This document shows positions 19,010-53,800 of a stretch of 64,000 nucleotides of DNA, one piece after another. A program made the translations under genes and the position numbers. Origin of the DNA: an archaeon. GTDB lineage: Archaea; Nanobdellota; Nanobdellia; Woesearchaeales; JBDRAZ01. The stretch's first letter is position 1. Each line of letters opens with the position of its first letter. Location of the stretch: contig JBDRAZ010000055.1 in NCBI GenBank assembly GCA_043823195.1, forward strand, positions 3,780-67,779. Direction: 5' to 3'. The notes beneath the pieces are model-generated. The model ran no database searches. It saw nothing but the letters and a program-made list of their open reading frames with translations, and had not been told where the DNA came from.

Positions 19010-19070
19010 GATAAAGTGGAGAGCGAAAACAGTAATAAATTTAAGTAGTAAAAGTTTTTACGAAACTACC

Positions 19071-21426: not shown

Positions 21427-21443
21427 TACTTACATTGTAAGTA
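21427..21443. promoter_or_regulatory. single copy of the 17-bp palindrome TACTTACATTGTAAGTA filling the trpB-trpA intergenic spacer
   Basis: Exact match to the repeat unit of the 40.2-kb array. Half-sites TACTTACA / TGTAAGTA are perfectly inverted. It lies between the trpB stop (21444) and the trpA start (21415). Confidence 0.4.
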
Positions 21444-24965: not shown

Positions 24966-25539
24966 TTGGGCACCTCCGGATAAGATTCTCAATGATTATG
25001 CCACCAACCGGGGTAAGAATGCTCTCCGGATGGAACTGGACGCCGCATACCGCGAATTTTTTATGCTGGACAGCCATGACAATCTTGTCTTCGGTTTCAG
25101 CTGTGATATCCAGGCAGCCGGGAATCTTCAGGCCGGAGAGCGAATGATACCGTCCTGCCTGAAATGGACTGCCTAACCCCGAGAAAATGCCTTTTGCATT
25201 ATGAAATATCCTGGACGGCTTGCCGTGGATTATTGTGGGTGCATGACCCACTACACCCCCAAAGGCCTCTACAATTGCCTGGTGGCCCAGGCAAACGCCA
25301 AAAAGCGGGATTTTGTCATGGTACTTACGAATCAGCGGAATTGAGTTTCCCGCGTCCTTGGGCGAAGACGGGCCGGGAGAGATCACAAGAAGATCGGGCC
25401 TGAACCCCTCAATTGCGTCCCTGTAGGCCTCCATGCTAATGTTGTTCCGGTAAACCCTGATGCTGCACCCCCTTTTTTCGAACTCATCAACAAGGTTAAA
25501 TGTGAAGGAGTCAAAGTTATCCACAAAGAGGACTTTCAT
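24955..25539 (-). CDS. trpG: anthranilate synthase component II (glutamine amidotransferase)
   Basis: 'MKVLFVDNFDSFTFNLV…' with the GATase triad Cys in 'GVCLGHQAI'. 194 aa. Confidence 0.9.
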   Translation of the reverse strand: MKVLFVDNFDSFTFNLVDEFEKRGCSIRVYRNNISMEAYRDAIEGFRPDLLVISPGPSSPKDAGNSIPLIRKYHDKIPLFGVCLGHQAIVEAFGGVVGHAPTIIHGKPSRIFHNAKGIFSGLGSPFQAGRYHSLSGLKIPGCLDITAETEDKIVMAVQHKKFAVCGVQFHPESILTPVGGIIIENLIRRCPNGN

Positions 25540-27131
25540 TTTTCAGCCCCCAGAGCCTTCAGGCATGCCCCGGCCTTCTTTTCAGTTTCAAGGTATTCGG
25601 ATTCGGGACTGCTGTCATAGACAACCCCTGCGCCTGCACGGATGTATGCCCTGCCGCCCTTAAGGCACATTGTGCGAATGACAATTGCGCTGTCCATGTC
25701 CCCCGAAGGCGTAAGATAGCCGACAGTGCCGCCGTAAAAGCCCCGTTTGCTTTTTTCAAGGTTTCTAATCAGCTTCATTGCCTCGACTTTAGGTGCGCCT
25801 GTGACTGTGCCCATATTCATGGTTGCCAGATAGGCGTGAAGGGCATCATAGCCTGGCTTAAGTGTGCCCCTGATATTTGAGACCAGGTGCTGCACGTGCG
25901 AGTACTTTTCCACAACAAAAGGTTCATCAACAACCCTTGTTCCGGGTATGCTGATCTTTGCAACGTCGTTTCTCGCCAGGTCAACCAGCATGACATGCTC
26001 AGCAAGCTCCTTTTCATCGATTTTGAGCTCGGTCTCGTATCTGCTGTCAAGGTCGCGGTCAATTTTTCCTTTGATTATGCCTCGGGGCTTGGTCCCTGCA
26101 ATCGGGCGCATCTCGACCGTCTTTTCCCGATCGCCTGTAACCCTGATGGCCATCTCCGGCGAGGCACCGATCAGGATTGTTTCGCTGTTAACATAAAACA
26201 TGTACGGGCTGGGGTTCAGGCTCCTGAGGCGCCTATAGATATCCAGCGGCTCGGAGTTGTAGCCTGAGACAATGGTCCTTGAAGGAACTGCCTGGAAGAC
26301 ATCGCCTGCAACAATATGCCTCTTGATTCTGGAGACAATCGCCTCATATTCGGCTTTTGTCGTGTCAGATTTCGGCCGGGGGGGGGTGTTTTTATAGGGG
26401 TGTTTCCCGGGCATCCTGCGATGTATCGTTTTCCTGTAGGACTCTATGACCCTTGTGCAGCGTTCATAGGCTGCATCACGGTCATCATCCATTATGAGCG
26501 CATTTGCTATGAAATGGGTCTTTTTCTCCTTGTGATTTATGAGAAACAGGTTGTCGCAGTAGAACATCTCATAGTCTGGTGCATCAAGTGTGTCGGCCTT
26601 GTTTTTCGGCAGGTCTTCAAACTGGTCAATAAAGTCGTATGAGATTGTCCCGAAGAGCCCGCAGTAAGGGACAAAGGGCTTGACCGTGGGCCTGAATCTG
26701 AAGGCTACGGCCCTCAGTATGTCGGCATGGGTAATGAGCTTGAGCCTCTCTTCTTCAGAGACTGATTCCCGCTGGGGCCTAAGTGTGCCCCTTATTGTTT
26801 TGCCATATTCGACATCTGCAAAGTCAAAGCTGCCATCAAGGAATTCGCAGAAGCGCCTGCCGAGGCCGTTCAGTGACCGGATCCGGAATTCATCGCCGCG
26901 GCCGGTAATCTTCAGGCAGGGGTCTGCCGTCCCGATGCTGTTCTCGCCGTATTTCGGGACTATGTCTGCGGACTCGAGAAGGATGCAGTTCGCCTTTCTG
27001 CCATAGTCTGAAAGCTTTGCGAAATACTCAATTGCGCACCTTGTCTCATCGTTTGTTTCAGTATGGACTACAGGAACAACAGTCCCTTCTTTAGCCTGCT
27101 GAATAATCTGCATCTCATGCATAGCTATCAC
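25536..27131 (-). CDS. trpE: anthranilate synthase component I
   Basis: 531 aa. C-terminal chorismate-binding domain (…GTVTGAPKVEAMKLI…, …RGFYGGTVGYL…). Confidence 0.9.
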   Translation of the reverse strand: MIAMHEMQIIQQAKEGTVVPVVHTETNDETRCAIEYFAKLSDYGRKANCILLESADIVPKYGENSIGTADPCLKITGRGDEFRIRSLNGLGRRFCEFLDGSFDFADVEYGKTIRGTLRPQRESVSEEERLKLITHADILRAVAFRFRPTVKPFVPYCGLFGTISYDFIDQFEDLPKNKADTLDAPDYEMFYCDNLFLINHKEKKTHFIANALIMDDDRDAAYERCTRVIESYRKTIHRRMPGKHPYKNTPPRPKSDTTKAEYEAIVSRIKRHIVAGDVFQAVPSRTIVSGYNSEPLDIYRRLRSLNPSPYMFYVNSETILIGASPEMAIRVTGDREKTVEMRPIAGTKPRGIIKGKIDRDLDSRYETELKIDEKELAEHVMLVDLARNDVAKISIPGTRVVDEPFVVEKYSHVQHLVSNIRGTLKPGYDALHAYLATMNMGTVTGAPKVEAMKLIRNLEKSKRGFYGGTVGYLTPSGDMDSAIVIRTMCLKGGRAYIRAGAGVVYDSSPESEYLETEKKAGACLKALGAEK

Positions 27132-31122: not shown

Positions 31123-31926
31123 ATGGCAAGAATTATATATGCGGGGGACTTATCGGGAGGCATGGACACCGCAGGATTAAGGGAAGCAGGACTTACAGAG
31201 GGTGAGATAAAGGTATATGCGGGCCTTCTGGGGCTGGGCGCGTCAACTACAGGGCCAATTGTGGATAAGTCAGGAATCTCGCGGTCAATTGTCTACAGGA
31301 TACTTGAAAGGCTCATCCAAAAGGGCCTGGTGTCCTATATAATCAAGGACAGGACAAAGTTTTTTCAGGCTGCGTCACCAAACAAAATACTGGGGTACAT
31401 TGACGAAAGAAGGGACGAACTCATTAAGAACAAGGCCAGGATCGAAGCGCTCCTGCCGGAACTCCTGATTATGGAGAAAATGTCTAAAAGGAATGAAGCG
31501 ACAATATATCTTGGCTATAGGGGAATAAGGAGTGCGCATGAGCACATATATGCAAAGCTCTCCGGGGGCGAGGAATACTGTTATCTGGGAATTCATGCAA
31601 TCCAGCCTGAAGAGCAGCACATCTACTGGAAAAAAGACCACCTGAAAAGGGTTGAGGCCGGCCTGAAGTGCAGGCTCCTGTTCAACAAAGACACTGAAAG
31701 AAGGGTTCTGAAGAACAGGAACAGCTTCGCGGGGTGCGATGCACGCTATATGCCTAAGGGAGTTGTAACGCCTGCATGCATTGTCACCTATAAAGACACT
31801 ACAATAATAATCCTTCAGATTCCAGCCGCAATTGCCGTGGAAATAGTCAGCCAGGAGATAAAGGATTCATTCCAGAGCTACTTTGAGGATTTCTGGAGAA
31901 AGAGTGTGCCGTTCAGATCCGGCTGA
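31123..31926 (+). CDS. TrmB-family transcriptional regulator (second paralog)
   Basis: HTH 'LREAGLTEGEIKVYAGLLGLGASTTGPIVDKSGISRSIVYRILERLIQKGLVSYI' aligns with the TrmB at 19071. The actual start may be the internal Met at about 31162. Confidence 0.7.
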   Translation: MARIIYAGDLSGGMDTAGLREAGLTEGEIKVYAGLLGLGASTTGPIVDKSGISRSIVYRILERLIQKGLVSYIIKDRTKFFQAASPNKILGYIDERRDELIKNKARIEALLPELLIMEKMSKRNEATIYLGYRGIRSAHEHIYAKLSGGEEYCYLGIHAIQPEEQHIYWKKDHLKRVEAGLKCRLLFNKDTERRVLKNRNSFAGCDARYMPKGVVTPACIVTYKDTTIIILQIPAAIAVEIVSQEIKDSFQSYFEDFWRKSVPFRSG

Positions 31927-37569: not shown

Positions 37570-40179
37570 ATGTACGATATTATTATCGGCAGGAACAAGT
37601 CCGACATGGACAAATTCGGTGACAGGGGCACCGTCCTTATCGGCAAGCACTATATCAAGATGGGGCGGGAAACCTCCCTTTCGAACAAGGTATTCCTGGA
37701 TGTGGCGCGGGCGCACGTTGTCTTTGTGTGCGGGAAGCGCGGCGGGGGAAAATGCCTGCATGGCGATACGCTGATTACCTTGGATGACGGTTCGCTGGTG
37801 CCAATCAGGGACATTAAGGAAAGCAACAGGCACGTTATGGCCCTTAACAAGAATCTTAAGATGCAGCCTTCTGAGAAGCTGGACTTTTACAGGAGACCGG
37901 TTGGAAGGCTCCTCAACATTAAGCTGAGAAGCGGAAAAGAGATAAGGCTTACGCCGGAACACCCGCTGCTTACTGTCAAGGGATGGATGCCTGCTGACCG
38001 GCTCAATATAGGCTCAAGAATTGCAACCCCGAGAAGTGTGCCGGCATTTGGTGATGAGCATATAAGCGAAGCCGAGACAAAAATCCTGGCTTACCTGCTG
38101 GCAGCGGGGAATGTTTCGAACAATTTCTTGTCCTTTGCAAGCCGCGATGAAAAAATTGTCGGCGATTTTAGGAACTCAGTCAGATTGTTTGATGAAAACC
38201 TGAAAATACACAAACACCCCCCGGGGGCTTGTTTTAGGGTTGCAGAAAAGCGGAAGAGGATAGTCATTAAACAACCGCCACGGGATAGGCTGGGCAGATT
38301 TTCATCGGCCACGGCCATAAGCGGCACATCATCCCTGGATGTGTGGCTTGACAAAATTGGGATCTGCAAAAAGCCCGCACGACAAAAACATATCCCAGAC
38401 ATTATCTTCAAGCTTCCGAGAAACAAAATCAGTCTTTTCCTTAACCGGCTGTTTTCCTGCGGCGCATCAATCTGCCGGGAAGGCGGGTTGTTCTGGAAAA
38501 TTTCCTACTGCTCCAGTTCAGAAAAAATGGCAAGAGAGGTGTGCCACCTCCTCCTGAGGTTTGGCGTAGTCGGCAGGCTAAGGCGCGGAGAGACAGCAGA
38601 CCCGCCCCGCTACGAGATTGAGATCGAGGGGGAATTTGTGCACACATTCCTTTCTGAGATTGGTTTGTTTGGAGATAAGGAGGAAAAGGCGGGGGGGGCG
38701 CTTGCCGATGCGCTGAAGATTGTGAGGACCCCTAACCCCGATAACATACCCGGGGGGATATGGGACCTGTACAGACCAGACGGCCGGGCAGGGGTTGGGC
38801 GTAAGCTGCACTACTCGACCCCCAAGACCTACAGCGAGAGCGGGCATTGCAGCCCATCCAGGCAGGAACTGCTGCAGATTGCCAGAGCTGATGAGAATGA
38901 CCTGTTGGCAAGGTTTGCCGCATCAGACATATTCTGGGACGAGGTCGTGCATGTTGAGTTGACTGAAGGGGATTTTACAGTGTACGATATAACTGTTCCT
39001 GAGAACCACAACTTCGTTGCCAATGACATAATTGTCCATAACTCCTATACGATGGGCGTCATTGCAGAGGGCCTTGCTGACCTGCCAAAGGATGTCTCAG
39101 ACAACCTCAGCTTCATCATGCTTGACACCATGGGAATATACTGGACCATGAAGTACGCCAATAAAAAAGAGGAGGATCTCCTCAAGGACTGGGGACTCAA
39201 ACCCAAGGGGCTTGACGTCAAAATCTATACCCCCGCCGGATATTTCAAGAGATACAAGGAAGAGGGGATACCCACCGACTTTCCGTTCTCAATCAGGCCA
39301 TCTGAACTGGATTCATCTGACTGGTGCATCACGTTTGGTGTTTCGGCCAACGAGCCCATGGGGGTCCTTATCGAAAGGACGGTCAATGAGCTGAAAAAGA
39401 AAAAAACAGGGTTCTCTGTTGAAGAAATCATTGAGGCCGTACAGGCGGACAGTGATGCGGAAAAAGAAGTCAGAGATGCGGTTGTTAACCGGTTCAGGAA
39501 CACCGAAGCATGGGGGGTGTTTTCAAAAGAGGGAACGCCGCTCAAAGAGTTGGTGCAGAAGGGCCAGGTAACGGTGCTTGATGTTTCGTGCTATGCAACA
39601 GTCCCCAATGGATGGGATGTTAAATGCATGGTTGTCGGGATAATCTCAAAGAAGCTCTTCATTGAAAGGATGGTCGCAAGAAAGGACGAGGAATACCGGA
39701 GCATTCACGCGGCCACCAATTACTTCGGAGATGATTCAGCCAGTAAACAGGAAATGCCCCTCGTGTGGCTTGTTCTGGATGAGGCGCATGAGTTCCTGCC
39801 AAATAAGGGAAAGACCACTGCAACCGACCCCCTGGTAACAATACTCAGGGAGGGAAGGCAGCCCGGACTGTCACTTATCCTTGCCACGCAGCAACCCGGA
39901 AAGATACATACCGACGTCATGACACAGTCTGACACAGTAATCAGCCACAGGATAACTGCAAAAATCGACACTGATGCGCTCGGGATGCTGATGCAGAGCT
40001 ACATGAGGGAGGGCCTTGACAGGCAGCTTGACAACCTTCCAAGGGTCAAGGGCGCAGCCATTGTCTTCGACGACACCAATGAAAAGATGTATCCGATAAG
40101 GATAAGGCCCAGATTCACTTGGCACGGCGGGGAGTCGCCCGTTGCTGTTAAGGAGAAGAGCGGGCGGTTTATGCTTTAG
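37570..40179 (+). CDS. HerA/FtsK-like P-loop ATPase (DUF87-type) interrupted by an intein. The extein is about 439 aa.
   Basis: Extein Walker A 'VVFVCGKRGGGK|SYTMGV' is split by the intein. Walker B and the HerA-type helicase motif read 'LVWLVLDEAHEFLPNKGKTT…ILREGRQPGLSLILATQQPGKI'. Confidence 0.8.
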   Translation: MYDIIIGRNKSDMDKFGDRGTVLIGKHYIKMGRETSLSNKVFLDVARAHVVFVCGKRGGGKCLHGDTLITLDDGSLVPIRDIKESNRHVMALNKNLKMQPSEKLDFYRRPVGRLLNIKLRSGKEIRLTPEHPLLTVKGWMPADRLNIGSRIATPRSVPAFGDEHISEAETKILAYLLAAGNVSNNFLSFASRDEKIVGDFRNSVRLFDENLKIHKHPPGACFRVAEKRKRIVIKQPPRDRLGRFSSATAISGTSSLDVWLDKIGICKKPARQKHIPDIIFKLPRNKISLFLNRLFSCGASICREGGLFWKISYCSSSEKMAREVCHLLLRFGVVGRLRRGETADPPRYEIEIEGEFVHTFLSEIGLFGDKEEKAGGALADALKIVRTPNPDNIPGGIWDLYRPDGRAGVGRKLHYSTPKTYSESGHCSPSRQELLQIARADENDLLARFAASDIFWDEVVHVELTEGDFTVYDITVPENHNFVANDIIVHNSYTMGVIAEGLADLPKDVSDNLSFIMLDTMGIYWTMKYANKKEEDLLKDWGLKPKGLDVKIYTPAGYFKRYKEEGIPTDFPFSIRPSELDSSDWCITFGVSANEPMGVLIERTVNELKKKKTGFSVEEIIEAVQADSDAEKEVRDAVVNRFRNTEAWGVFSKEGTPLKELVQKGQVTVLDVSCYATVPNGWDVKCMVVGIISKKLFIERMVARKDEEYRSIHAATNYFGDDSASKQEMPLVWLVLDEAHEFLPNKGKTTATDPLVTILREGRQPGLSLILATQQPGKIHTDVMTQSDTVISHRITAKIDTDALGMLMQSYMREGLDRQLDNLPRVKGAAIVFDDTNEKMYPIRIRPRFTWHGGESPVAVKEKSGRFML
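37753..39042 (+). mobile_element. intein (430 aa) with LAGLIDADG homing-endonuclease domain, inserted in the P-loop
   Basis: Block A 'CLHGDTLITLDDG'. Block B 'RLTPEHPLLTV' (TxxH). LAGLIDADG-like 'ILAYLLAAGNVSN' and 'ISLFLNRLFSCGASI'. Blocks F/G 'DFTVYDITVPENHNFVANDIIVHN' are followed by the +1 Ser. Confidence 0.8.
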
Positions 40180-40220: not shown

Positions 40221-40405
40221 TACCTACATTGTAAGTATTAATAAATTCCGAGTACCTACATTGTAAGTATGAACGGACAATAATACCTACAATGTAAGTA
40301 CAAAGGCCACCATATCCGCAAGATATTTATAGAAGTTCCTACATTGTAAGTAAAAACTCATTCTGTTCAGAAAAATTTATATATAGATACTTACATTGTA
40401 AGTAT
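40221..40405. promoter_or_regulatory. array of five 17-18-bp palindromic sites TAC(C/T)TACA(T/A)TGTAAGTA, putative TrmB-type operator cluster
   Basis: Copies start at 40221, 40253, 40284, 40337 and 40388 (spacings 32, 31, 53 and 51 bp) in an AT-rich intergenic region. The motif fits TACT-N8-(A/G)AGTA, like the haloarchaeal TrmB site TACT-N7-8-GAGTA. Confidence 0.55.
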
Positions 40406-40430
40406 TGCGCTGTGTTGGGGAACACACTGA

Positions 40431-40901
40431 CTAGGGGGTCAAAGGGGCCCCAAAATAGAGTACAGAGAGAAAAGAGGTGCAGGCGCTTCATCTAGTTCTC
40501 GGGCTGCTTCGCCTGAGTTTAATGCTGAACCCATTCCCTGCTCGATATTCTATGACAGGGGCGTTAGCGTCCTGGAGGCGATTTCTGAATATCTCAAGGA
40601 TGCCAAATCACTGAACTACCACCAGATAGCCGTTCTTCTGAACAGGGATGATCGGACCATATGGACCTGCTACTCAAGGGCCAAGAAGAAACGGGCCGGA
40701 ACCAGAACCAGGATATCCCAAGTCAGTGTCCCCAGCACCATATTGCGCGACAGGAACGTAAGCGTCCTGGAAGCGATTTCTGAATACCTCAAAGACTCGC
40801 TTGGGCTGTGCTATCATGAGATAGCTGTGCTTCTGAACAGGGATGATCGGACCATATGGACCTGCTACTCAAGGGCCAAGAAAAAGAGGGATGCCCAATG
40901 A
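40431..40901 (+). pseudogene. start-less 156-codon open frame encoding two copies of a sigma-70-region-4-like HTH module. Possible pseudogene or non-canonically initiated small regulator.
   Basis: The frame is open from the stop at 40428-40430 to the TGA at 40899-40901 with no ATG, GTG or TTG. It contains a ~135-bp imperfect direct repeat (40561-40690 and 40757-40895). Each copy encodes 'VSVLEAISEYLKD…YH(Q/E)IAVLLNRDDRTIWTCYSRAKKK'. The stop overlaps the ATG of the downstream protease gene (ATGA). Confidence 0.4.
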
Positions 40902-43900
40902 CAGCGTACGGCAGAAAGGTAAGGGAGCTGCAGAGACGCATCAGGGCGTGCGAGGAGAAGAAGAGAAACGTAATCGACTGCTGCAACGACCTTTCAAGGC
41001 AGTGCGAGCACAACAGGATATCCTACTCGAGATACAGGATTCTGCTGAAAGACCAGCTGGGCGGCAAAAGCATATCTGATACACTCGTGCACTATGACAG
41101 GGCAATCACCAGATATAGGGTTGCTGTGAGCCAGTACAAAAGCGATACTCCTGACCGGCTTAACATTGCGCTGGTCGTGATGCTTATCCTTTCTGCGGGC
41201 CTTTGGATTCCTGTACTCAATAATCTGCGGGCAAGCCCAACCGGATTTGTTGCCGGCGAGACAACAGAAAGCTACACTGATGCTATAAACATGAACCTCA
41301 GCGGCAGCTACAGCTGGATACCCCCCGAATCAGGGGAGCTACGCAGCGTCATGGTTTCCGGCCGGATCACCGGGAACGGAACCGTTGGCATATACCTCGT
41401 GAGCAGGAACAGCAGGCAGCTCATTTACCGGACCCCGGAAAGGGAGGGGATCGCGGCCATCACCGGGAATGTTGTGGACAACCAGACAGAGGACAACCGG
41501 ACAGGCAACAGCTCAGGGGCTGATCCAGCCAATGAAAGCGAAATCACGCCAGAAATTACGCTCAACCTAAAATATAAGGAGGGCACCCCATTTGATGCTG
41601 ATAATGACGGAGCGGAGACCCTTGAGGGAGTAATTGACTTCTATGCAGATTCCGCATTCAGCTGGGATGCCAACCTCAGCAATGTCTGCTCGGTCTGGAG
41701 GATTTCATCAGGGGGCACAGAGTCAACAATCTGCCATGGGGCCTGGCGCTGCTGCAACTTTGCCGAACTGCTGCCGGAAGAGGGCCATTCTTGGGACGAG
41801 ATGCACCTGTACTACGGCCTATTGGGTGCCGGCACAGAAAACAACGTCAGCTCCCGGGTGCTGTATGTTGACTACAGCCTCGATCCGGAAAACCCGTACT
41901 CTGTCATTGCATACAGCAACTGGTCCACACTGCCTGCAAGATTCTATGAGCCTGCTGACGAATGGCTGGATATTGAGGACGAATGCCTGGAGACCTGCCT
42001 CCTGGGGCTGGATGAATACAACTACACGATAGCTGTTGAAACAGAGAATGCCACCGTCTTCCTGAGCAACATTACATATTCTGTCGTTGAGAAGAATAAG
42101 AAGCCCCAGCTGGTCCGTGCGATACCCCAGGTTACGGCAGGTGCAAATTTCACGATCAATGCCTCTGATTACTTTACTGATGATGACACGCTGGTGTACG
42201 CTGTTGAGGGGTGTGACATTCCGCACACAATCACGGGCGGAATCATAAGGTTCAAACCGGACGCAACCGGCATATCCAAGTGCAGAATTCGCGCATCTGA
42301 TGACCAGGACAGCGTGCTGTCAAATGTTTTCAAGGTCACGGTGGTCAGGGTGGTTCCGCTGGTTGTTGACCAGGCCATAAACATAACGCTAGCGACACAG
42401 GAGACAGTCAGGGTGATTGTCAGGCTGATAGACAACACATCCGGCTCCAACCTGAGCCTTATCAGGAAAATCGATGAATTTGAGGTACTATACCTGAACA
42501 GCTCGGCACTGAACGAACTGCAGAATAACCTCTATGCGCTCGAGGTCATGATCGACCAGCCGCTATCGCTCCTCCTTAACGACAGCATCGGCATAATCGG
42601 AGCAGAGTCAGCATGGAACATCTCACTCAACGGCTCCGGGCAGCGGGTCTGCGTGATTGATTCGGGAGTGGACAATGGCGTAGTGCCGGTTGCCGGAGGC
42701 TACGATTTTGTTAACAATGACGCAGATCCGTATGATGACCACGGCCACGGGACTTCTGTTGCTTATGTAATACACAGGATAGCACCGGAATCAGGGATAA
42801 TTGCCGTGAAGGTCATTGATGAAAACGGCGCGGGATACGAATCAGATGTCCTTGCCGGCATTGAATACTGCAGGGAGCAGAACGTGAGCGTCATCAGCTT
42901 CTCAATCGGGTCCGGGGGCTACCCCGGCACATGCAATGACAACATTGTTGCCTCCTATGCAAATTCTGCTGCGGCCGCCGGAATTTTTGTATCGGCTGCA
43001 ACAGGAAATGACGGAACAGCCCTGCTCAAGTCTCCTGCCTGCGCAAGCCTTGTAACGGCTGTTGCCGCATCAACAAAGAACGACACACTTGCCAATTTCA
43101 GCAACGTAAATGCCCTGGTGAGGATAGTGGCGCCCGGTGACAGCATCACCACGATCCTTCCGGGAGGCGATGCCATAGTCAGGAGCGGAACATCCATGTC
43201 TGCCCCCCATGTTGCCGGGGCTGCGGCACTCCTGCTGCAGAATGATGATCTTGAGCCGGAGGAACTGGAGGAGAAGATTGCCATAAGCGGAAAGGTGATC
43301 GAGCATGATGGCAGGAACTATTCAAGGATTGACATAGGGCGCGCACTTAACATAACAGTCAATGTCACTGTAAATGAAACAAACATTACCTTTGCGGCAA
43401 ACGCAACAGTTGATCCGCGGGTTGAGGAATTTGTCAACAGAGTTGGCTTCGTGCGGGCGATTGTAAGGGTGTCTGACCCCAACATCAGCCTAAACTACAG
43501 CATAATTGTCAGGGTCAACCAGTATATCGCCCTGATCCTAGACAACGAGTCGCTAAGCGTGCTGAGGCACCTCCCCGGCGTTGAAGAGATTGTAATGGAC
43601 CAGCCGGTATTGCTCCTCCTTAACGAGAGTGTGCCGCTGATCAGGGCAGATATGAACCTGTCGGTTAACGGCTCGGGCCAGAGAATCTGCGTAATTGATA
43701 CTGGTGTCGATTACAGCGTGGTCCCAAATTATGAATACGGGTTTGATTTTGTCAACAATGACACAGACCCGTTTGATGAGCACGGCCACGGAACATCGGT
43801 TGCAAACGTAATCTATAATGTTGCACCGGGGGCGGGAATAGTTGCTGCAAGGGTCGTGAATGGCAGCGGGACCGGCTATGAGTCAGATGTTCTTCTGGGA

Positions 43901-44863
43901 ATTCAATACTGCAGGGAGCAAAACGTAAGCGTGATCAGCCTCTCAATCGGGTCAGGCGCCTATGATACCTGCTATTGTGACGACAACCCCGTCGCCAACC
44001 AGAGCAATGAGGCTGTACTGGATGGAATCTTTGTTGTCGCTGCCACAGGAAACTCCTACTCAACCAGGGCTAAGAGCCCCTCCTGCGCAAGCCGCGTTGC
44101 CTCGGTATCATCAACAGACAAGCGGGATAATGTCTCGCTGTTTGCAGACATCAATAACATAACAAAACTGCTTGCGCCCGGCGAGCAGATATACACGAAA
44201 ACGGTTGGCGGGAATAACACTACTGTTTCAGGCACTTCCATGTCTGCTGCGCATGTAGCGGGTGCAGCTGCGCTGATTTTGCAGAACAGCAGCCTTTCTC
44301 CTACAGAACTGAGCTACAGGCTGAGGTCCACTGGGCGGGTTGTGGAGTTCATTTTGCAGAATTACTCGAGAATCGATTTGCTGAATGCCATACTCAATAA
44401 CGTGACAAATACACCGAAGGAAATGGATGCTGTGCAGTGCTCCGAGAGCCTGTATAGTCCGCTGGCGCTGCTGACCGGGCCCGCGGTCACAATCCAGTGC
44501 TCAAGCTACGGCTGCCTCAGGATACAGAACAGCGGCGGCACGGATATTGCGGTCATCACTGAATACGGCCACATGAGCACCATAGGAGCCCTAACGCAGG
44601 GCTGCACAAGCAGCCCAAACGGCAATGACTGGCAGATTCAGGATTCAAGCAGCAATGTCAAGGCGTGGCTTGATGACAGCACCGGGGCTTTCTGCATTGA
44701 TGGCTCGCTAAGCACCGAAACCACAGTCAGCCCGAGCGGAAGCAATGATTTCATTGTGAGAAACCCCTCAAACGCGAATGTTGCCATGCTTGACGGCGGG
44801 ACAGGAAACCTTGTGCTCCTTGGGAATTACAGTCAGAACGCGGGACCAATAACAATAACATGA
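40898..44863 (+). CDS. membrane-anchored tandem subtilisin-like serine protease (two I9-propeptide + peptidase-S8 units), heavily N-glycosylation-sequon-rich
   Basis: Start 'MTAYGRKVRELQRR…'. About 95 cytoplasmic aa then the TM helix 'LNIALVVMLILSAGLWIPVL'. Catalytic triad of unit 1: 'VCVIDSGVD…HGHGTSVA…GTSMSAPHVAGAAALLLQ' (about 42640-43330). Unit 2: 'ICVIDTGVD…HGHGTSVA…GTSMSAAHVAGAAALILQ' (about 43680-44350). Each is preceded by an I9-like propeptide. Many NxS/T sequons. Confidence 0.85.
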   Translation: MTAYGRKVRELQRRIRACEEKKRNVIDCCNDLSRQCEHNRISYSRYRILLKDQLGGKSISDTLVHYDRAITRYRVAVSQYKSDTPDRLNIALVVMLILSAGLWIPVLNNLRASPTGFVAGETTESYTDAINMNLSGSYSWIPPESGELRSVMVSGRITGNGTVGIYLVSRNSRQLIYRTPEREGIAAITGNVVDNQTEDNRTGNSSGADPANESEITPEITLNLKYKEGTPFDADNDGAETLEGVIDFYADSAFSWDANLSNVCSVWRISSGGTESTICHGAWRCCNFAELLPEEGHSWDEMHLYYGLLGAGTENNVSSRVLYVDYSLDPENPYSVIAYSNWSTLPARFYEPADEWLDIEDECLETCLLGLDEYNYTIAVETENATVFLSNITYSVVEKNKKPQLVRAIPQVTAGANFTINASDYFTDDDTLVYAVEGCDIPHTITGGIIRFKPDATGISKCRIRASDDQDSVLSNVFKVTVVRVVPLVVDQAINITLATQETVRVIVRLIDNTSGSNLSLIRKIDEFEVLYLNSSALNELQNNLYALEVMIDQPLSLLLNDSIGIIGAESAWNISLNGSGQRVCVIDSGVDNGVVPVAGGYDFVNNDADPYDDHGHGTSVAYVIHRIAPESGIIAVKVIDENGAGYESDVLAGIEYCREQNVSVISFSIGSGGYPGTCNDNIVASYANSAAAAGIFVSAATGNDGTALLKSPACASLVTAVAASTKNDTLANFSNVNALVRIVAPGDSITTILPGGDAIVRSGTSMSAPHVAGAAALLLQNDDLEPEELEEKIAISGKVIEHDGRNYSRIDIGRALNITVNVTVNETNITFAANATVDPRVEEFVNRVGFVRAIVRVSDPNISLNYSIIVRVNQYIALILDNESLSVLRHLPGVEEIVMDQPVLLLLNESVPLIRADMNLSVNGSGQRICVIDTGVDYSVVPNYEYGFDFVNNDTDPFDEHGHGTSVANVIYNVAPGAGIVAARVVNGSGTGYESDVLLGIQYCREQNVSVISLSIGSGAYDTCYCDDNPVANQSNEAVLDGIFVVAATGNSYSTRAKSPSCASRVASVSSTDKRDNVSLFADINNITKLLAPGEQIYTKTVGGNNTTVSGTSMSAAHVAGAAALILQNSSLSPTELSYRLRSTGRVVEFILQNYSRIDLLNAILNNVTNTPKEMDAVQCSESLYSPLALLTGPAVTIQCSSYGCLRIQNSGGTDIAVITEYGHMSTIGALTQGCTSSPNGNDWQIQDSSSNVKAWLDDSTGAFCIDGSLSTETTVSPSGSNDFIVRNPSNANVAMLDGGTGNLVLLGNYSQNAGPITIT

Positions 44864-44876
44864 GAGAGGTGAAGAA

Positions 44877-47800
44877 ATGAACGTGCTAGGACATGAGAAG
44901 ATGAAGCGAATAGGTGCCCTGGCAGTCATCTTCATGCTTCACCTAGCGATAGCTCTGCCCTTTGTTGAGGCAGCAGACCCGGGCCATTCTGCGGCTGCGG
45001 TTGGCTCAGGAACATTCGAGTCCGGAGATTACGGGTTCCCGGGAAGCCTTAACATTACAGCAAGCCTCGGCGTCGGCTCAAGGTGGCCGGGCGGGACAGG
45101 AAACATAAATGCCAGCGGAAACATCTCGATAGGCGGACTGTTCTTTTCGCGGGGAGCCGGCAACAACTACTTTGCCGGGAACCTCGGCATAGGCACAGCT
45201 GCAGCCGCGTCCAAGCTTACCGTGATTGGCAACGGCAATATTACCGGGGGGCTGAATGTTACCGGAAGCATAAAGTCCATCTCAGGGATATTCTACGGAG
45301 ACGGATCAGGGCTGACAAACCTGCCGGCGGGATCTGTGCAGGATGTTTGGGTAAATGAATCAGGGGATACAATGACGGGGAACCTTATCATCAATGCCAA
45401 CCTGACCGTTGATTCGGGCGTGCTGTTTGTGGATAACTATGGCAACTATGTGGGAATCGGCACGACCAGGCCGGATGAGCTGTTTGAGCTGTCCAGCTCA
45501 AGTTTTAGCAACACCGACATGAAACTGACTGCAACTGCAAACGGCGCTGTGGGCGGCTCAAAAGTGGGCAATGTCATGTTTGAGGGGCAGGATACATCTG
45601 TTGGCACAGCTGTTTTGTCCCAGATCAGCGGCATATACGTCGAGGGCGCCTCAGGCGGGGACGGCTTTGCAATAGACGGCTCTTCCGGGGACGGCGGCGG
45701 CATTGCGTTCCTGACAAACAAGTACACCGGCTCATGGGACGGGCTGTCTGAAGCGATGAGGATCGACATGAACGGATATGTTGGAATAGGGACCGGCAGG
45801 CCGACACAGCTGCTGGATGTCCGCGGAAACATCTACACAACCGGCAACATTGCAGTGAACGGGGACCACATCACATCAGACGGAAACCTAGAGATCGAGG
45901 CAACCGGGTATGTAAGGATTGGCGATGACGGATCGCCGGGAAGCGCCAACGGGGATGATGACCTGTATGTGCGGGGAAGCATTGAGGCGGACGGAATCTT
46001 CTACGGAGACGGATCAGGGCTGACAAACCTGCCATCGGGTGCGGTGGCAGATGTGTGGGTGAATGAGTCAGGGGATACGATGACGGGGAACCTGGTATTC
46101 AGTTCGGCCAATCTGGACATGGGAGGGGGGATAATTAACCTGTCAGGAGGATACATATATGATTCAACCGGTGCGGCAACCGTGAACGATGACCTGAAGG
46201 TTAACGGCGGCGACATAACGGGTGCAAACTCAATAACAATGGATCTCGGAGAGGCAGACACCGATGCAGTTGTAATAACAACCGACAATGTTGGCGATTA
46301 TGATGATCCCGACCTGGTCATCAACTCAGGGGGGGAAGGGAACATCCGGCTTGGTGCAGCAGATGCGGATACCGGATTCCAGATTTATACTGACAGCGCC
46401 TCATTTCCGCATGCCCTGAAGGTAAGGGCTGAACTTAATCCGGATGCTGCAGACTATGAGATGTTTGTCGTAATGAGCTCGGGTGCTGCTGAAAGGTTTT
46501 CTGTCATTCATGGCGTAACAGGATACGGCAGCCAGTTCTATGACAGCCTGGCTGTCGGCGCAGCCGGGGACAACAGCCCAACCCTGACGCACATTGATTT
46601 TGGAACGGACAGCAGCGGAGACCTGTGGGTTGGCGATGATGCTGAGATCAATGGTGAAATGCACATTGACGGAACCGGAACAAGCACCATGGACGGAGAC
46701 TTGCAGGTTGCAGATGACAGCTGGATCGGGATCGGATCAGGTTCCGAGAGGGTTGTGTTTGATTCCGCAGGAGATATTGAGGTCCTGGGCGCAAACGTCG
46801 GGATCGGGACAACAGTGGCAAGTGCATATCTTCACATAGAGGACCTGTTATCATCAGGTGACTTGCTGGAGTTGACAACAGATAATAAGGATATTGACAT
46901 AAGAATAGGTGAGAACGATGACGGGGGATACGGATATTACTGGCGCTATGTGGGTACCCAGGGCGGGAATGATAATGAGCTGGAGCTGTGGACTGAAGGG
47001 CAGGCCGGCGCAGATGTCCAGGTGTATGAGATCGAACAGGACGGCCAGGTCAATTTCCTGCAGAATGTTGGCCTCGGAACAGACTCTCCTGCATACCGGC
47101 TGGATGTGGTTGATTCAATAAGGGCAGGAACCGGGTCGCCGGGAACGGCGGACATGAGCACAGGGGCCAATGCCGACCTATTTGTAACAGATGACCTGGA
47201 GGTTGACGGGATAATCTATGGGGACGGCTCTGGGCTGACTAACCTGCCGGCAGGAGCTGTTGCAGACATATGGATCAACGAGTCAGGAGATACGACAGGT
47301 GCGCTCACAAAGGACCTGAACATCGATGCAGGAACACTGGTTGTCGACTATGATGCGAATGCCGTCGGGATTGGAACAAGTGTTGCTACAGGTAAATTAA
47401 CAATTACGGGCCCGACCGCCAACACGGGTGTTGACTCCAACAGCGAGCTGGTTATTTATGGCGCACACCCGCAGATAAAATTAAGGGACACGGATGGTGT
47501 CGGCGAGAGTTGGTGGATCCATGCGAATGATGCCGGGCTTTATTTCCTGAAAAACGATGATGAAAGCTCAACGAGCACATGGGACAGCACCAGGCCATTT
47601 TTCATTGGGGAGTCAGGCAACGTCGGCATTGGGACTGCAGCCCCAAGTGCACTTCTGGATGTGCAGGGCGATGCTTATCTTACCGGAGACATCCTGATGA
47701 CTGACGGGAATTACATTGGAATATCGGGGAATGAGAGGATTGTGTTTGATGATGCCGGGGATATTGAGATCCTTGGGGCGAACGTCGGGATCGGGACGAC

Positions 47801-50800
47801 AGCTGCTGAAACCACATTGCATGTTGAGGGGAACATGACCATTGGAGGAACCGGACTGTTGTTTGAGGATTCAACCTCGGGAGGGGATGCATCGCTGACA
47901 AGAGTAATCCGCTTTAACAACAATGACGACCTGAGATATGATGACACCAATAACATCTACACATTTACAGGAGACGCAAAAACGTACCTGGTTATGGACG
48001 ACCAAAGCGTGGGAATCGCAAGGGCACCATCATATGGCCTGGATGTCATCAATTCCACTAGGATAGGCGACGGCACTCCGGGAACAGCCGACATGAAAGG
48101 GAAATCGGCCGCGGACCTATATGTAACTGATGACATTGAGTTCGACGGAGTCATCTATGGCGACGGCTCGGGGCTCACAAACCTGCCGGCTGGAGCGGTG
48201 CAGGACATATGGATCAACGAGTCTGGAGATACGACCGGCGCGCTGGTAAAGGACCTGAACATTGATGCGAATACGCTTTTGGTAGACTATGATGCGAACA
48301 GCGTCGGGATTGGGACTTCTGCTGCAAGCCAGGGACGGCTGCATGTATACCGCTCAGATACAATCGGCGGAGTAGGGGGCACACTTACAAATGCCGCACT
48401 TGCAATCTCAAACGGCGCTAATGACGGATTTTATATTGATGAGAACGAATTCCACCAAAGCGGCGACAATTTTAACCTCTATCTGGACACGGATGCGAAG
48501 AATTTCATTTTTTATGATAATGCCGGCCAGATTATGACTATCCAGGATGGGGGAAACGTGGGGATTGGAACTGCGACAGCCACGCAGAAGCTGGATGTGC
48601 AGGGGAACGCGTACATCACAGGAGACATCCTGATGACTGACGGGAATTACATTGGAATATCAGGGAATGAGAGGATTGTGTTTGATACTGCAGGGGATAT
48701 TGAGATCCTGGGGGCGAGTGTCGGAATAGGTACGACTGTGGCAACGGCCCCATTGGAGATTGCTGCAAGCGCTGATGAACAGCTCCTTATAGAGGGCGGC
48801 TGGGATGACACATTAACAAGCAACGCAAGAATGAACTTCAATGATGAGAACTTCGGAGTTGGCGCAGGCCAGTATGGAGGCGGAAGCTCTGAGGACGCCA
48901 TGGTTCTCTGGTCATACAAGGGCGCGGGCCGGGGCATCCTCTTTGCATCCACGGCTGCCGGGGACACCACAACATTCCAGTCAATGACCCATAACATGTT
49001 TATAGATGGCAATACCGGGGCGGTCGGCATCGCAAAAACAAGCCCGTCTTATACGCTCGATGTATCTAACTCGACAAGGATCGGCACGGGCACGCCAGGA
49101 ACAGTTGACATGAAAGGCGGACCGGATGCCGACCTATATGTAACAAATGACATCGAATTTGACGGCGTGATCTACGGGGACGGATCAGGCCTGGTAAATT
49201 TGCCGGCCGGAGCTGTGCAGGACATATGGATCAATGAGTCAGGAGATACGACGGGTGCGCTTACAAAGGACCTGAACATCGATGCGGATACATTCGTGAT
49301 AAGCTACGATGATAATCGCGTGGGGATTGGGACGGCTGCACCAACGCAGCTATTGGATGTGGAGGGCAACCTGGAGGTCGACGGGACGCTGTACTTTGAC
49401 GCAGCCAATGCGGACGGGACCATAGACATGGACGGGTACAGGATCGAGGATCTTGGAGACCCAGATTCTGGAGACGATGCAATGGACAGGGATTATGCTG
49501 ATTCCAGGTACGTTAACACCAATGGGGATACCATGACAGGCACCCTGACAACAAGGCAGGTCACTGTTCAGGACGGATATGTCATAAGGCATCAGGAGCA
49601 GGGAGGAAATGCCATCATGTTCGACTGCGACGGGACTGACTGCGATTCGAGGATAACAATCCATGACGGACAGGGCAACTTCAACATCAAGACCGGGGTT
49701 GATGACGGCGAACTTTTCATCGCGGGCGGGAGCCACGGCGCAGCCAAGTACACGCAATATGCTTCCGGCGCAGACGGGGCCCACATTTTCCAGGTGGATG
49801 ACCAGGGAACTGGCGGCGCAGCTGTAAGCTATGACGGTGGGCTGCGGTTTGATGATTCAGGACTATTTATCACGACAAGCCCCGGGGACCATTTTGCCAC
49901 CGGCGGAAACCAGATCGCTGACCTGTCCGGACACCTGTATACGGAGGCATACCTCTACCATGAGGGGGATACCAATACTTACGTGGGATTCCCGTCTAAT
50001 GATGAGATCAGGCTAAGAACCTCGGGGACAGACAGGATAACAATCGTATCCGGCGGAAATGTCGGTATCGGGACAGCAACCCCGTCACAGCTGCTGGATG
50101 TGCGCGGAAACATCTACACAACAGGCGATATCGCGGTGAATGGGGATGACATAACCTCAGACAGCAACCTGGACATCTCGGCGACGGGATACGTGAGGAT
50201 CGGGGACGACACAGGAACGCCCAACTATGCAAGCGGAGACGACGACCTGTATGTGTATGGCGATATCGAGGCTGACGGAGTATTCTACGGGGACGGCTCA
50301 GGGCTGATTAACCTGCCGGCGGGGGCGGTGCAGGACATATGGATCAATGAGTCAGGAGATACCACGGGTGCGCTGATCAAGGACCTGAACATCGATGCGA
50401 ACACTTTTGTGATAAGCTATGATGATGATCTGGTTGGCATTGGGACAGCGACTCCTGCCACAAAGCTTGATGTTGAAGGGGACATACAGTTGTCCGGACA
50501 ACTATTGGGTGATGTGCAAAGAGGCGGAGAGACCACGTATAGCTCTGTCGGCTACTGGACATTTGATGGGGATTATGACGACTATTCGGGTTACGGGCAG
50601 ACGGGCACAGCGAGAAATAACGCCGCCCGCACTTCAACAAATGCGCTTTTTGGACAATCGCTAAGCCTGGACGGAACCGATGATTCGATTGAGATCGCAG
50701 ATTCTGGATCAAGCCCCCTTGACGTAACAAATGCCTTCACTTTCGAGGCATGGGTACGTCCTGATCTGAACACTGATGAGATGATCCTGAATAAGGAGAC

Positions 50801-53800
50801 AAGTTATGAGTGGGTGATTCAGGGAAGCGGTACTGTCCAGTGGGCACTTTATACCAGCGGCACATGGGAGTGGCATGACACGGGGGTATCTGTCCCGACA
50901 CTAGAATGGACACACCTTGCGCTTACGTATGACGGGACGAATGTCAGGGTTTACAAGAACGGGGAACTCAAGAGCACTATCGCGGACCCGGACGGCGGCG
51001 CAATTGGCACCAATGACAACAACCTGTGCATCGGCACACGGGGCGGGGACGGCTGTGCCGGAACCCAGGACTACGACGGGCTTATTGACGAAGTGCGCAT
51101 CTACAACCGCGTCCTGACATCAGAGGAAATACGGGCCCACCACACCCAGAGTTACTGGGCAGAAGAGGGGAGCAACGTATATCTTACAAGTTCAGGAAAC
51201 GTCGGCATCGGGACTGCTACAGCAACACAGAAGCTGGATGTGCGGGGCAATGCCTATATTACGGGCGACGTCCTCATGACCGATGATAATTACATCGGAA
51301 TCTCTGGTGCTGAGAGATTAGTGTTTGATACGGCCGGGGACCTGGAGATACTGGGGGCAAACCTGGGAATCGGCACTTCAACTACCAATGCAAACCTGGA
51401 TATCTACGGCGGCGGGAGCGCCACAACACAGATCTTCATCCAGAACCCGGGCAATAACGGGGCAGGGAAGGGCGCAATAGATGTAAACAATGGGGACATA
51501 ATCGGCCTGAACAAGATTTTTTTTGACGACCTCGGAGAAGGCCTAGTGTGGGCAACTGCAAACACTGCTGCAACATCAAAGACACAGATATATTCAACAG
51601 ATGCAACACCCTCAAACATTTACCTTGACACAAATCTGAATTCAAACGCCGGGCACGTCATAATCCCAAGCGGGAATGTGGGAATCGGCACAGTAACGCC
51701 TGCGCAGAAGCTCGATGTGCGCGGAAACATATACACAACAGGCGACATCGCAGTAAACGGGGATGACATCACGTCGGACGGAAACCTGCTCATTGCCGCA
51801 ACAGGGTATGTAAGGGTCGGCGATACAGGAACGCCCACCTATGCAAGCGGAGACGACGACCTGTATGTGTATGGTGACATCGAGGCTGACGGAGTATTCT
51901 ACGGGGACGGCTCAGGGCTTGTAAATTTACCGGCGGGAGCGGTGGATGACATATGGATCAATGAGTCAGGAGATACGACAGGAGCCCTAACTAAGGACCT
52001 GAACATCGATGCGGATACATTCGTGATAAGCTATGATGATAATCTGGTAGGAATCGGGACGGCAACACCCAGTCAGAAGCTGGATGTTGTTGGGAATGTA
52101 GAAATCAATGGAAAATTTGGTGCCGCAACCGGAAGTAGTGATGGTCAAACGCGAGGTTTCTGGGTTTGGAACTTAGGGGATTCGAACCACGTCATTTATT
52201 CTGCAGCTTCAACAGGGACGTCTCCCGCGGGAGCAGGTGCAGCCGACGGGCTATGGGATGCAGGCCACAGAATGAGATTCAGAACTGCAACCACCCAGGG
52301 ATTCCTTTTTGAAAACAACGGAGAAACAGCATTGGTTGACATTGATTCTGATAACGGCAACCTGAGATCCATTGGCACTGCGTATTTCAGCGGTTCCGGA
52401 AATAACTATTTTGCGGGCAACATTGGCATCGGGACTGCGACACCCAGCCAGCTCCTTGATGTGCGCGGAAACATATACACAACAGGCGACATCGCGGTGA
52501 ACGGGGACGACATAACATCAGACAGCAACCTCGACATCTCGGCTACGGGATATGTGAGGATTGGTGATGATACGGGAACGCCCAACTATGCAAATGCTGA
52601 TGATGACCTGTATGTATACGGGGACATTGAGGCGGACGGAGTATTCTACGGGGACGGATCAGGGCTTGTAAATTTGCCGGCGGGGGCCGTGGACGACATC
52701 TGGATCAATGAGTCAGGAGATACGACCGGGGCACTAACTAAGGACCTGAACATCGATGCGGACACGCTTGTGATAAGCTATGATGATAATCTGGTAGGAA
52801 TCGGGACGGCTAGCCCCAGTGATGCATTACATGTACATAAAGACTCTGGTATCAGAATAAGCGACCCAAACAATGTTTACAGGGCTAATTTGTTGTTTGG
52901 GGCTGACAGTGCGTGGAACAGCGGCATCAGGGTATACGACAACGGAGATGCAGAGATGAGGATCTGGCATGAGAATGTGGACGGCCAGATTATCCTAGCA
53001 ACCGGCTATGCCGGAGATATGGCTACTACTATTCCGGGTGATGGCCTGTTCATACATGAGAACAAATTAGGAATAGGATACGGTGCCACAACAATCCCAG
53101 ACGGCGCACGTCTGGCTGTGAACGGCAACACAGGCATAGGAACAGCATCACCAACACAGCTGCTGGATGTCCGCGGAAACATATATGCTTCAGGAAATGT
53201 TGATGTGGACGGGACGCTGTACTTCGATGCTGCTAATGCAGACGGACAATTGGACATGGACGGGCAGACCATACAGATGAGAGGGGGAGTTATTGAGGAC
53301 GCAACTGATGAGGTAGATATAAATGATAACCTTGCGGTGGCCGGGCAGATTACGGCAAATTACTTTAAAGCCGGGCAGGGCAACTCTGCAACCATCGGGA
53401 GCGTCGGGTGGTACAGGATTGCCTCAAACGGCGGGAACAGGGCCAATGCCGAGTTTACATTGAGGGACTATATCAGCGGCGGCGGGCACTCCATGCTGAC
53501 ATTCAAGGTGGGCGTATCCTATGACTGGGAACCCGGCATGAGCTTTACCCTCCTTAACCACAATTACTATAGCACAGCAACCTTTACGAAAGTAAGGGTA
53601 TGGGAGAGCAGCTATACCTATGACCCCATGTATGTTGAGGTTTATGTCGCAAGGACAGGGAGCATGGATTACTCAATATATGATAACCTGCAAAGCAGCG
53701 GATGGAGCCCCATTGACTGGACAGCGGGTGCCACACCCACAGGAACTGGAGCATATACCGCGAGGGAGTTTGAGGTAAATAACCTATTTACCGTCGGGGA

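Follow-up and report, generated by a model that had tools for sequence, protein, structure and literature searches.

The palindromes and the operon that they precede

The 64,000-nucleotide stretch of contig JBDRAZ010000055.1 analyzed here (hereafter the window) belongs to an archaeon of the Woesearchaeales and carries a cluster of 17-bp palindromes, which a sequence-only reading had placed upstream of a protease gene and a giant-protein gene and had compared with the operators of TrmB regulators. The cluster was found to precede an open reading frame (ORF) encoding two tandem helix-turn-helix (HTH) repeats, and palindromes of the same kind accompany the homologs of this ORF at more than 100 loci in related archaea. 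The position of the sites with respect to a TATA box and the conserved linkage with this gene bear out the earlier view that they are operator-like, promoter-associated sites for a predicted DNA-binding protein.

An exact and near-exact search of the window for the 17-mer TAC(C/T)TACA(T/A)TGTAAGTA recovered all five of the clustered copies previously described, at 40221-40404. When up to three mismatches were allowed, 12 strand-matches were obtained, which is far above the 0.05 expected from 100 dinucleotide shuffles (at most one match in any of them). The half-site TACTTACA is confined, within the 64 kb, to six palindromes: the five clustered copies and a sixth one located in the trp operon. 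The start-to-start spacing of the clustered copies is 32, 31, 52, and 52 bp, and the whole cluster is intergenic, lying after the stop codon of the preceding gene (40179) and before the coding sequence that follows. The sites and the promoter element adjoining copy 5 are as follows.

40221-40237, no strand assigned: palindrome copy 1 (distal), TACCTACATTGTAAGTA, from the sequence search
40253-40269, no strand assigned: palindrome copy 2, TACCTACATTGTAAGTA, from the sequence search
40284-40300, no strand assigned: palindrome copy 3, TACCTACAATGTAAGTA, centre base inverted (A for T), from the sequence search
40336-40352, no strand assigned: palindrome copy 4, TTCCTACATTGTAAGTA (TTCC for TACC), with ATATTTATAG just before it, from the sequence search
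40371-40385, plus strand: B-recognition element (BRE)/TATA-like box AAAAATTTATATATA (core TTTATATA, 40376-40383), 4 bp before copy 5, read from the sequence
40388-40404, no strand assigned: palindrome copy 5, perfect TACTTACATTGTAAGTA, promoter-proximal, spanning approximately -17 to -1 relative to the predicted start
21427-21443, no strand assigned: palindrome copy 6, perfect, taking up all the space that separates the trpB stop codon (21444-21446) from the ribosome-binding site and start codon of trpA (ATG 21415, minus strand)

AT-rich TATA-like stretches also precede copies 1, 2, and 4. The genes following the cluster, and the one preceding it, are arranged as follows.

40405-40407, plus strand: TTG abutting copy 5; the equivalent TTG is the leaderless HTH start codon in the related loci L120, L122, L126, L001, and L007
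40431-40901, plus strand: open frame encoding a tandem HTH protein resembling region 4 of sigma-70 (repeat 1 at about 40533-40700, repeat 2 at about 40728-40898)
40898-44863, plus strand: membrane-anchored protein of 1321 amino acids containing a pair of subtilase (S8) domains; its ATG and the stop codon of the HTH frame overlap (ATGA, 40898-40901)
44859-64000, plus strand: giant ORF of more than 6380 codons with a LamG domain, extending past the end of the window
37570-40179, plus strand: upstream gene, encoding a HerA/FtsK-like P-loop ATPase split by an intein that includes a homing-endonuclease domain of the LAGLIDADG type

Since the giant ORF overlaps the stop codon of the protease gene, these two genes belong to the same operon, and since the HTH, protease, and giant genes overlap successively, the palindromes sit on the promoter of the whole three-gene unit. 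The position upstream of the protease and giant-protein genes described in the sequence-only reading stands, but the 145-codon tandem-HTH frame (40431-40901) located between the palindromes and the protease gene had been missed. As regards the sugar-binding modules attributed to the giant protein, the LamG domain was found, but no carbohydrate-binding module (CBM) was detected in the first 4800 amino acids at E<=1e-4.

In the trp operon, an A-rich stretch is followed by copy 6 and then, 11 nt further on, by the trpA start codon, which is the geometry of the proximal copies at the other targets. The palindrome is absent from the trp site of the one relative examined (L199, TrpA 62% identical), where a 212-bp AT-rich gap separates trpB from trpA. 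The TrpA of the window has its nearest non-identical relatives, at 59-65% identity, in Nanoarchaeota/Woesearchaeota, in keeping with a DPANN archaeon close to Woesearchaeota. In the window as a whole, the cumulative GC skew reaches its minimum at about 25000-27000, where the gene orientation turns from mostly minus to mostly plus; this minimum could be related to replication or to a plain transcriptional strand bias.

Linkage of the palindrome with HTH genes in related archaea

In species-representative genomes, 240 relatives of the HTH protein were identified, nearly all of them in Woesearchaeota or Nanoarchaeota, and 79 loci were kept. At 51 of these 79 loci, the half-site TACTTACA is present in the 600 nt preceding the HTH gene, and at 28 it lies within 45 nt of the predicted HTH start. 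Its density amounts to 4.2 per kb upstream of the HTH genes and to 0.079 per kb in the other ~1.06 Mb, which corresponds to a 53-fold enrichment, and the half-sites found outside the HTH-upstream regions occur mostly in further promoter clusters. Arrays of 2-12 copies (up to three mismatches) are present within 600 nt upstream in most loci. This distribution, along with the restriction of the half-site to six sites in the window, argues against a dispersed repeat or a miniature inverted-repeat transposable element (MITE).

The layout of the promoters is also conserved. Two palindromes precede the HTH gene in L001, L004, L005, and L007, each of them after a TTTAAATA-type box, and the proximal copy abuts a TTG start codon (for example, tttaaatattagcaTACTTACATTGTAAGTA-TTG). 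Judging from the sequence, this TATA-palindrome-TTG layout corresponds to that of a leaderless archaeal promoter in which the palindrome would occupy about -17 to -1 relative to the predicted start. In a comparison of 98 sites from 30 loci, the TATA consensus ends 3-6 bp before the proximal copy in 23 loci, including the window, while the TATA-like box of the distal copies is variable or missing (none was found at 14 of 68). The proximal copy directly adjoins the start codon or comes close to it. The fact that only the proximal copy is locked to a TATA box suggests that the conserved unit is the palindrome and not a promoter module. In the clade of the window, as seen in the window itself, L120, L122, and L126, a perfect proximal copy is combined with distal copies of the TACC type.

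In the loci lacking the motif, the HTH gene is mostly embedded between giant genes, so that there is no promoter immediately upstream. In L129, L134, L138, and L140, which have a higher GC content, the HTH gene lies between giant genes after a conserved gene encoding a membrane protein of ~416 amino acids, and no palindrome was found within 20 kb.

The linkage was also found in the reciprocal direction. JGI metagenomes were searched for two palindromes 14-44 bp apart, no protein information being used, and 70 clusters were obtained. At 46 of them, a homolog of the HTH gene starts no more than 200 nt away and is oriented outwards from the cluster. In the viral contigs used as a background control, there were 111 single-site matches, a number at chance level, and none of them lies beside an HTH homolog.

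The composition of the palindrome varies with that of the protein. Full palindromes occur in 28 of the 48 loci encoding two canonical recognition helices (R[DN][DEQ]RT[IV]W) and in none of the 12 loci encoding paralogs with a degenerate first repeat (RNxIxLAV; NRNEIALAVTYRNAKKK), ten of which have nevertheless kept a TACTTA[CT]A half-site, as TACTTACATAATATAA-ATG. A third subfamily, with RDERNIW as the second helix, is associated with the motif TACATATATAATA[A/G]GTA. The different subfamilies are found together on single contigs (L165, L168) and within single genomes, where each is accompanied by a motif variant of its own. These data fit a predicted mode of recognition in which one HTH repeat reads one half-site, and the paralog-specific variants, together with a loss of half-sites running parallel to the degeneration of the repeat, would be hard to explain by a single unlinked factor.

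At least 23 of the 79 genome loci carry an ORF of at least 1000 amino acids directly 3' of the HTH gene, often overlapping it, and in many loci the downstream ORF is still open at the end of the locus, after more than 3300 amino acids. The Pfam matches of this downstream cargo, where there are any, are to beta-helix/NosD, Big_9, LamG, or PKD domains. The protease and the giant LamG protein of the window fit this pattern.

Repeated units were observed in several arrays, namely a 54-bp exact repeat in L005 (1-110), four units of 69 bp in the 254 nt upstream in L130, and five units of 53 bp in L139 (4394-4640). It appears that units of 50-70 bp, which include an AT-rich box and a palindrome, are duplicated in tandem as the arrays grow. 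Among the loci, L122, L123, L125, L128, and others come from metagenome-assembled genomes entitled "uncultured Methanosarcinales archaeon," although their low GC and their gene content suggest that these titles are generic or wrong.

The tandem-HTH protein

The HTH protein of the window consists of two repeats of ~60 amino acids with the pattern ...SVLEAISEYLKD..L.YH.IAVLLNRDDRTIWTCYSRAKKKR. The DNA sequences of the two repeats differ largely at synonymous sites, which suggests that both have been selected as protein. A protein search gave 520 matches, mostly 125-165 amino acids long and nearly all metagenomic, the named ones being from Woesearchaeota or Nanoarchaeota, and in the family alignment both repeats are conserved and have an invariant R-D-R-T-W-T recognition region. 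Weak matches were obtained with Sigma70_r4_2 (PF08281), HTH_23, HTH_38, and IS630 transposase models, all below the cut-offs; no curated Pfam or NCBIfam family was reached at threshold, and no solved structure was found to match in a sequence search.

The AlphaFold2 model built from a 69-sequence alignment has a pLDDT of 93.3 and a pTM of 0.85, and shows in each repeat a short strand, a short helix, and then three longer helices. These scores indicate that the geometry between the two repeats is fixed in the model. Foldseek gave no whole-chain match to this model in the PDB (best E 0.03), but the single repeats superpose on region 4 of extracytoplasmic function (ECF) sigma factors with a root-mean-square deviation (rmsd) of 0.5-0.9 A over 42-46 columns. 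The matches include SigE region 4 with -35 DNA (2h27, rmsd 0.5 A, 42 columns), SigR (5fgm), SigC (2o8x), and SigD (3vep); the DNA-binding domain of DeoR was matched as well. Sigma region 2 is absent from the protein, which has only the two region-4-like repeats, and all the sigma models score far below their cut-offs. A single chain composed of two sigma-region-4 repeats forming a putative pseudo-dimer is an architecture for which there is no solved structure or curated family.

Other genes preceded by the palindrome

Sixteen metagenome clusters are flanked on each side by at least 500 nt in which no homolog of the HTH gene was detected. One of these (L201) precedes a divergent single-HTH relative, and six are located 3-70 nt upstream of genes encoding large membrane or surface proteins (L208, L224, L228, L239, L243, and L263; one with a LamG domain). 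The remaining ones lie in divergent intergenic regions near PAN, gyrA, an Asn-synthase-like gene, or a gene encoding an unannotated protein of 317-367 amino acids.

In L139 and L146, a second array was found upstream of a conserved rio1-KH-top6B-top6A operon, which encodes a kinase, a KH protein, and topoisomerase VI subunits B and A; this array has seven copies in L139 (4394-4777) and two in L146 (4725-4761). This suggests that the regulon reaches housekeeping genes. Just upstream of these two arrays there is a conserved non-coding element (about 4060-4210 in L139 and 4480-4610 in L146), in which the sequence 'ccctggca...ctgc.ggggaaaaagaggtga' occurs twice. No Rfam match was obtained with this element at E<=0.1, and it could be an unknown small RNA.

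A candidate autoregulatory operator array

Taken together, these data lead us to propose, with a probability of about 0.65, that the palindromes form the autoregulatory operator array of the adjacent tandem-HTH regulator, the predicted binding being probably repressive. The chain of ~130-150 amino acids, with its two near-identical sigma-70-region-4-like repeats, would fold as a fixed pseudo-dimer. One molecule would bind each 17-bp palindrome, each repeat presumably contacting one 8-bp half-site (TACTTACA). Copy 5, which lies between the TATA box and the predicted transcription and translation start, would, when occupied, still allow the TATA-binding protein (TBP) and transcription factor B (TFB) to bind but would exclude RNA polymerase. 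Archaeal regulators are known to repress when they bind downstream of the TATA box and to activate when they bind upstream of it (PMC4158304). The regulator would thus repress its own operon, consisting of the HTH gene, the double-S8 protease gene, and the gene for the giant LamG surface protein, in a negative autoregulatory loop, and we infer that a signal relieves this repression. The four slightly imperfect distal copies (TACC...) may be auxiliary sites increasing the local occupancy, the cooperativity, or the buffering of the system, and further surface-protein genes as well as a few housekeeping promoters would be controlled in trans by the same factor.

Several observations weigh against this proposal. 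The support for it is comparative throughout, and the sign of the regulation is deduced from the position of the site only. The covariation between palindromes and HTH repeats gives a Fisher p value of 1.8e-4, which is uncorrected for phylogeny. Between 16 and 24 of the 70 metagenome clusters have no adjacent HTH gene. At the rio1 operons of L139 and L146, the TATA box is preceded by the sites, an arrangement that would point to activation of these targets, and the rio1-top6BA arrays together with the trp-operon site imply that the factor acts in trans on other genes. The spacing of 32, 31, 52, and 52 bp suggestive of helical phasing occurs in the window only; in the relatives the spacing ranges from 16 to 124 bp without any periodicity, and phasing was therefore rejected as a general rule and given no weight.

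The start of the regulator gene is a further difficulty. In the window, no ATG, GTG, or TTG is in frame with HTH repeat 1, the first canonical start being the TTG at 40743, and the TTG at 40405 is out of the HTH frame and opens a frame of nine codons only. The regulator of the window may therefore be frameshifted, inactive, or decaying, unless the assembly contains an indel. HTH repeat 1 likewise has no canonical start in L127, L130, L131, L132, and L137, where an in-frame CTG (ACG in L127) occurs exactly 21 codons before the conserved Ile-Pro. The start region reads, in frame, CTG-TGT-...-TGA in the window and TTG-TGC-TAG in L127 and L130. Initiation at a near-cognate codon, re-initiation after the mini-ORF, and read-through are all possible in the window and in these relatives.

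Alternative explanations

The palindrome might instead be a specialized core-promoter element, the tandem sigma4-like protein acting beside TBP and TFB as an activator or a sigma-like specificity adaptor, so that the giant surface-protein operons would be strongly transcribed and not repressed. The position of the half-site right after the TATA box is nearly fixed, even in distant subfamilies, many distal copies have a TATA-like box of their own, and the arrays extend by duplication of 50-70 bp units including both elements. The sites upstream of the TATA box at the rio1 promoters, and the sigma region 4 fold, which makes contact with DNA as well as with RNA polymerase in bacteria, point the same way. 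We nevertheless consider activation unlikely, since a site between the TATA box and the start is in the classic position of archaeal repressors (PMC4158304), the protein consists of two region-4-like repeats with no sigma region 2 and no RNA-polymerase-binding region, and 14 of the 68 distal copies have no TATA-like box, the offsets of the distal copies being variable. In a more specific version, to which we give little credence, the protein would be a dedicated DPANN promoter-specificity factor acting beside TBP and TFB on the TACTTACA dyad just downstream of the TATA box. If this were true, it would be an archaeal counterpart, derived from a duplicated region 4, of the alternative sigma factors, and the operons for giant surface proteins involved in host interactions would have a promoter class of their own.

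The palindromes could also be the operators of an unlinked trans-acting regulator, such as a global factor for surface-protein genes. Between a quarter and a third of the clusters have no HTH gene beside them, and the HTH gene of the window has no intact start codon. This is quite improbable, however, in view of the linkage found in both search directions, the presence of paralog-specific motif variants on one contig, and the fact that the loss of half-sites tracks the degeneration of the HTH repeats.

According to the sequence-only reading, the sites are operators of TrmB-family proteins placing the protease and giant-protein genes under sugar-responsive control. Two ORFs of this family (PF01978) are indeed present in the window.

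18945-19805: TrmB-family (PF01978) ORF
31123-31926: TrmB-family (PF01978) ORF

However, these proteins match only the N-terminal winged HTH (wHTH) part of the TrmB models: the alignment covers approximately their first 110 residues, TrmB_C is not matched, and the scores obtained with the TrmBL1 and TrmB equivalog models are 43.9 and 27.1 bits, as compared with cut-offs of 600-650. Since only the wHTH part was aligned, a sugar-sensing domain is not supported, and from their sequences the two proteins are not evidently sugar sensors. The TrmB sites described are TACT-N3-AGTA, TATCAC-N5-GTGATA, and TACT-N7-8-GAGTA (PMC4158304). The outer TACT...AGTA of the palindrome resembles the first and the third of these, and the LamG module of the giant protein would suit a response to sugars. 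The close match claimed previously did not hold up: the palindrome reads TACT-N9-AGTA (or TACT-N8-AAGTA), so that only the outer tetranucleotides agree, and the N9 spacing and the inner bases differ from those of every described site. It is the inner TTACA/TGTAA that is conserved from lineage to lineage, and these bases are part of no described TrmB motif. In addition, there is no palindrome in the window upstream of either TrmB-like gene (18945 and 31123), no TrmB homolog was detected in the ~1.1 Mb around the arrays of the 79 genome loci, and the 70 metagenome arrays yielded just two weak ones. The arrays are thus linked not to TrmB genes but to HTH and surface-protein genes, and the motif covaries with the tandem-HTH paralog. 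We therefore regard TrmB-mediated control as very unlikely.

It is hardly credible that the palindrome is a dispersed MITE-like repeat or an RNA hairpin element with no operator role (Rho-independent-like signals, processing sites, and iteron or origin recognition box (ORB) arrays included), since, although one copy fills an intercistronic gap of the trp operon and a 7-bp RNA stem is possible, the hairpin is weak (-4.1 kcal/mol) and undistinctive in its context, the proximal copy precedes the predicted start, the half-site does not occur elsewhere in the 64 kb and is 53-fold depleted outside the promoter regions of relatives, there are no terminal repeats, target duplications, or transposase, and no Rfam family is matched. 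The RNA-level reading was rejected because of this weak hairpin, its context, and the absence of an Rfam family. The possibility of a clustered regularly interspaced short palindromic repeat (CRISPR), iteron, or ORB array was discarded on the basis of the size of the unit, the presence of several arrays per genome, and the gene context. The sequence-only reading had likewise argued against a CRISPR array, which would have regularly spaced repeats of at least about 23 nt with unique spacers; the units here are of 17 bp, are spaced 31-52 bp apart, and adjoin a TATA box and a gene start. The arrays lie beside HTH or surface-protein genes, none of them beside orc1/cdc6, which argues against an origin.

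Implications for DPANN surface proteins

DPANN archaea are mostly uncultured symbionts, and their giant surface proteins are prime candidates for attachment to the host. To our knowledge, no regulator or operator has been described for the giant surface-protein genes of these archaea, and the control of such genes has not been reported. Literature searches on the motif, on DPANN or Woesearchaeota regulators, and on sigma-70-like archaeal proteins yielded nothing relevant, and as far as these searches show, the palindrome and the tandem-HTH protein make up a previously undescribed pair of cis-element and regulator with a familiar regulatory logic. With an 8-bp half-site, a regulator of ~140 amino acids that should be easy to express, and a predicted promoter geometry, the regulation of these proteins would become approachable in vitro without any cultivation, and the motif could be used to predict the surface-protein regulon across hundreds of Woesearchaeota genomes.

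Comparison with known systems

The proposed system most resembles the autoregulated archaeal repressors of the TrmB/TrmBL1-Tgr type acting at TGM sites (PMC4158304), in which, as predicted here, a dyad site between the TATA box and the start site would hinder the recruitment of RNA polymerase, with extra sites upstream and the regulator gene inside the regulated unit. These repressors are wHTH homodimers, whereas here a single chain with two sigma4-like repeats and no effector domain is predicted. Their sites share only the outer TACT with the 8-bp half-site, and the targets here are giant surface-protein operons and not sugar metabolism genes.

Region 4 of the ECF sigma factors, as seen in the SigE region 4-DNA (2h27) and SigR region 4 (5fgm) structures, has the same three-helix HTH fold as each of the repeats, and there is a weak similarity to PF08281. 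The tandem-HTH protein differs from ECF sigma factors in that region 4 is duplicated in tandem and that there is neither a region 2 nor a polymerase-binding part; the host is an archaeon with TBP/TFB promoters, and the predicted target is a palindrome instead of a -35 hexamer.

AraC/MarA-type regulators, paired-domain proteins, and the N-termini of Tc1/IS630 transposases likewise have two HTH units per polypeptide, which bind to two adjacent major grooves. In the present case, in contrast, the two units are almost identical copies duplicated within the chain, the site has the form of an inverted repeat, and a catalytic domain is lacking.

Giant DPANN surface proteins, such as the SPEARE proteins of Nanohaloarchaeota, are similar to the cargo of the window, where a serine-protease module precedes a protein of over 6000 amino acids carrying adhesion-type (LamG) domains in a DPANN-like genome. 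This likeness concerns the regulated genes and not the palindromes.

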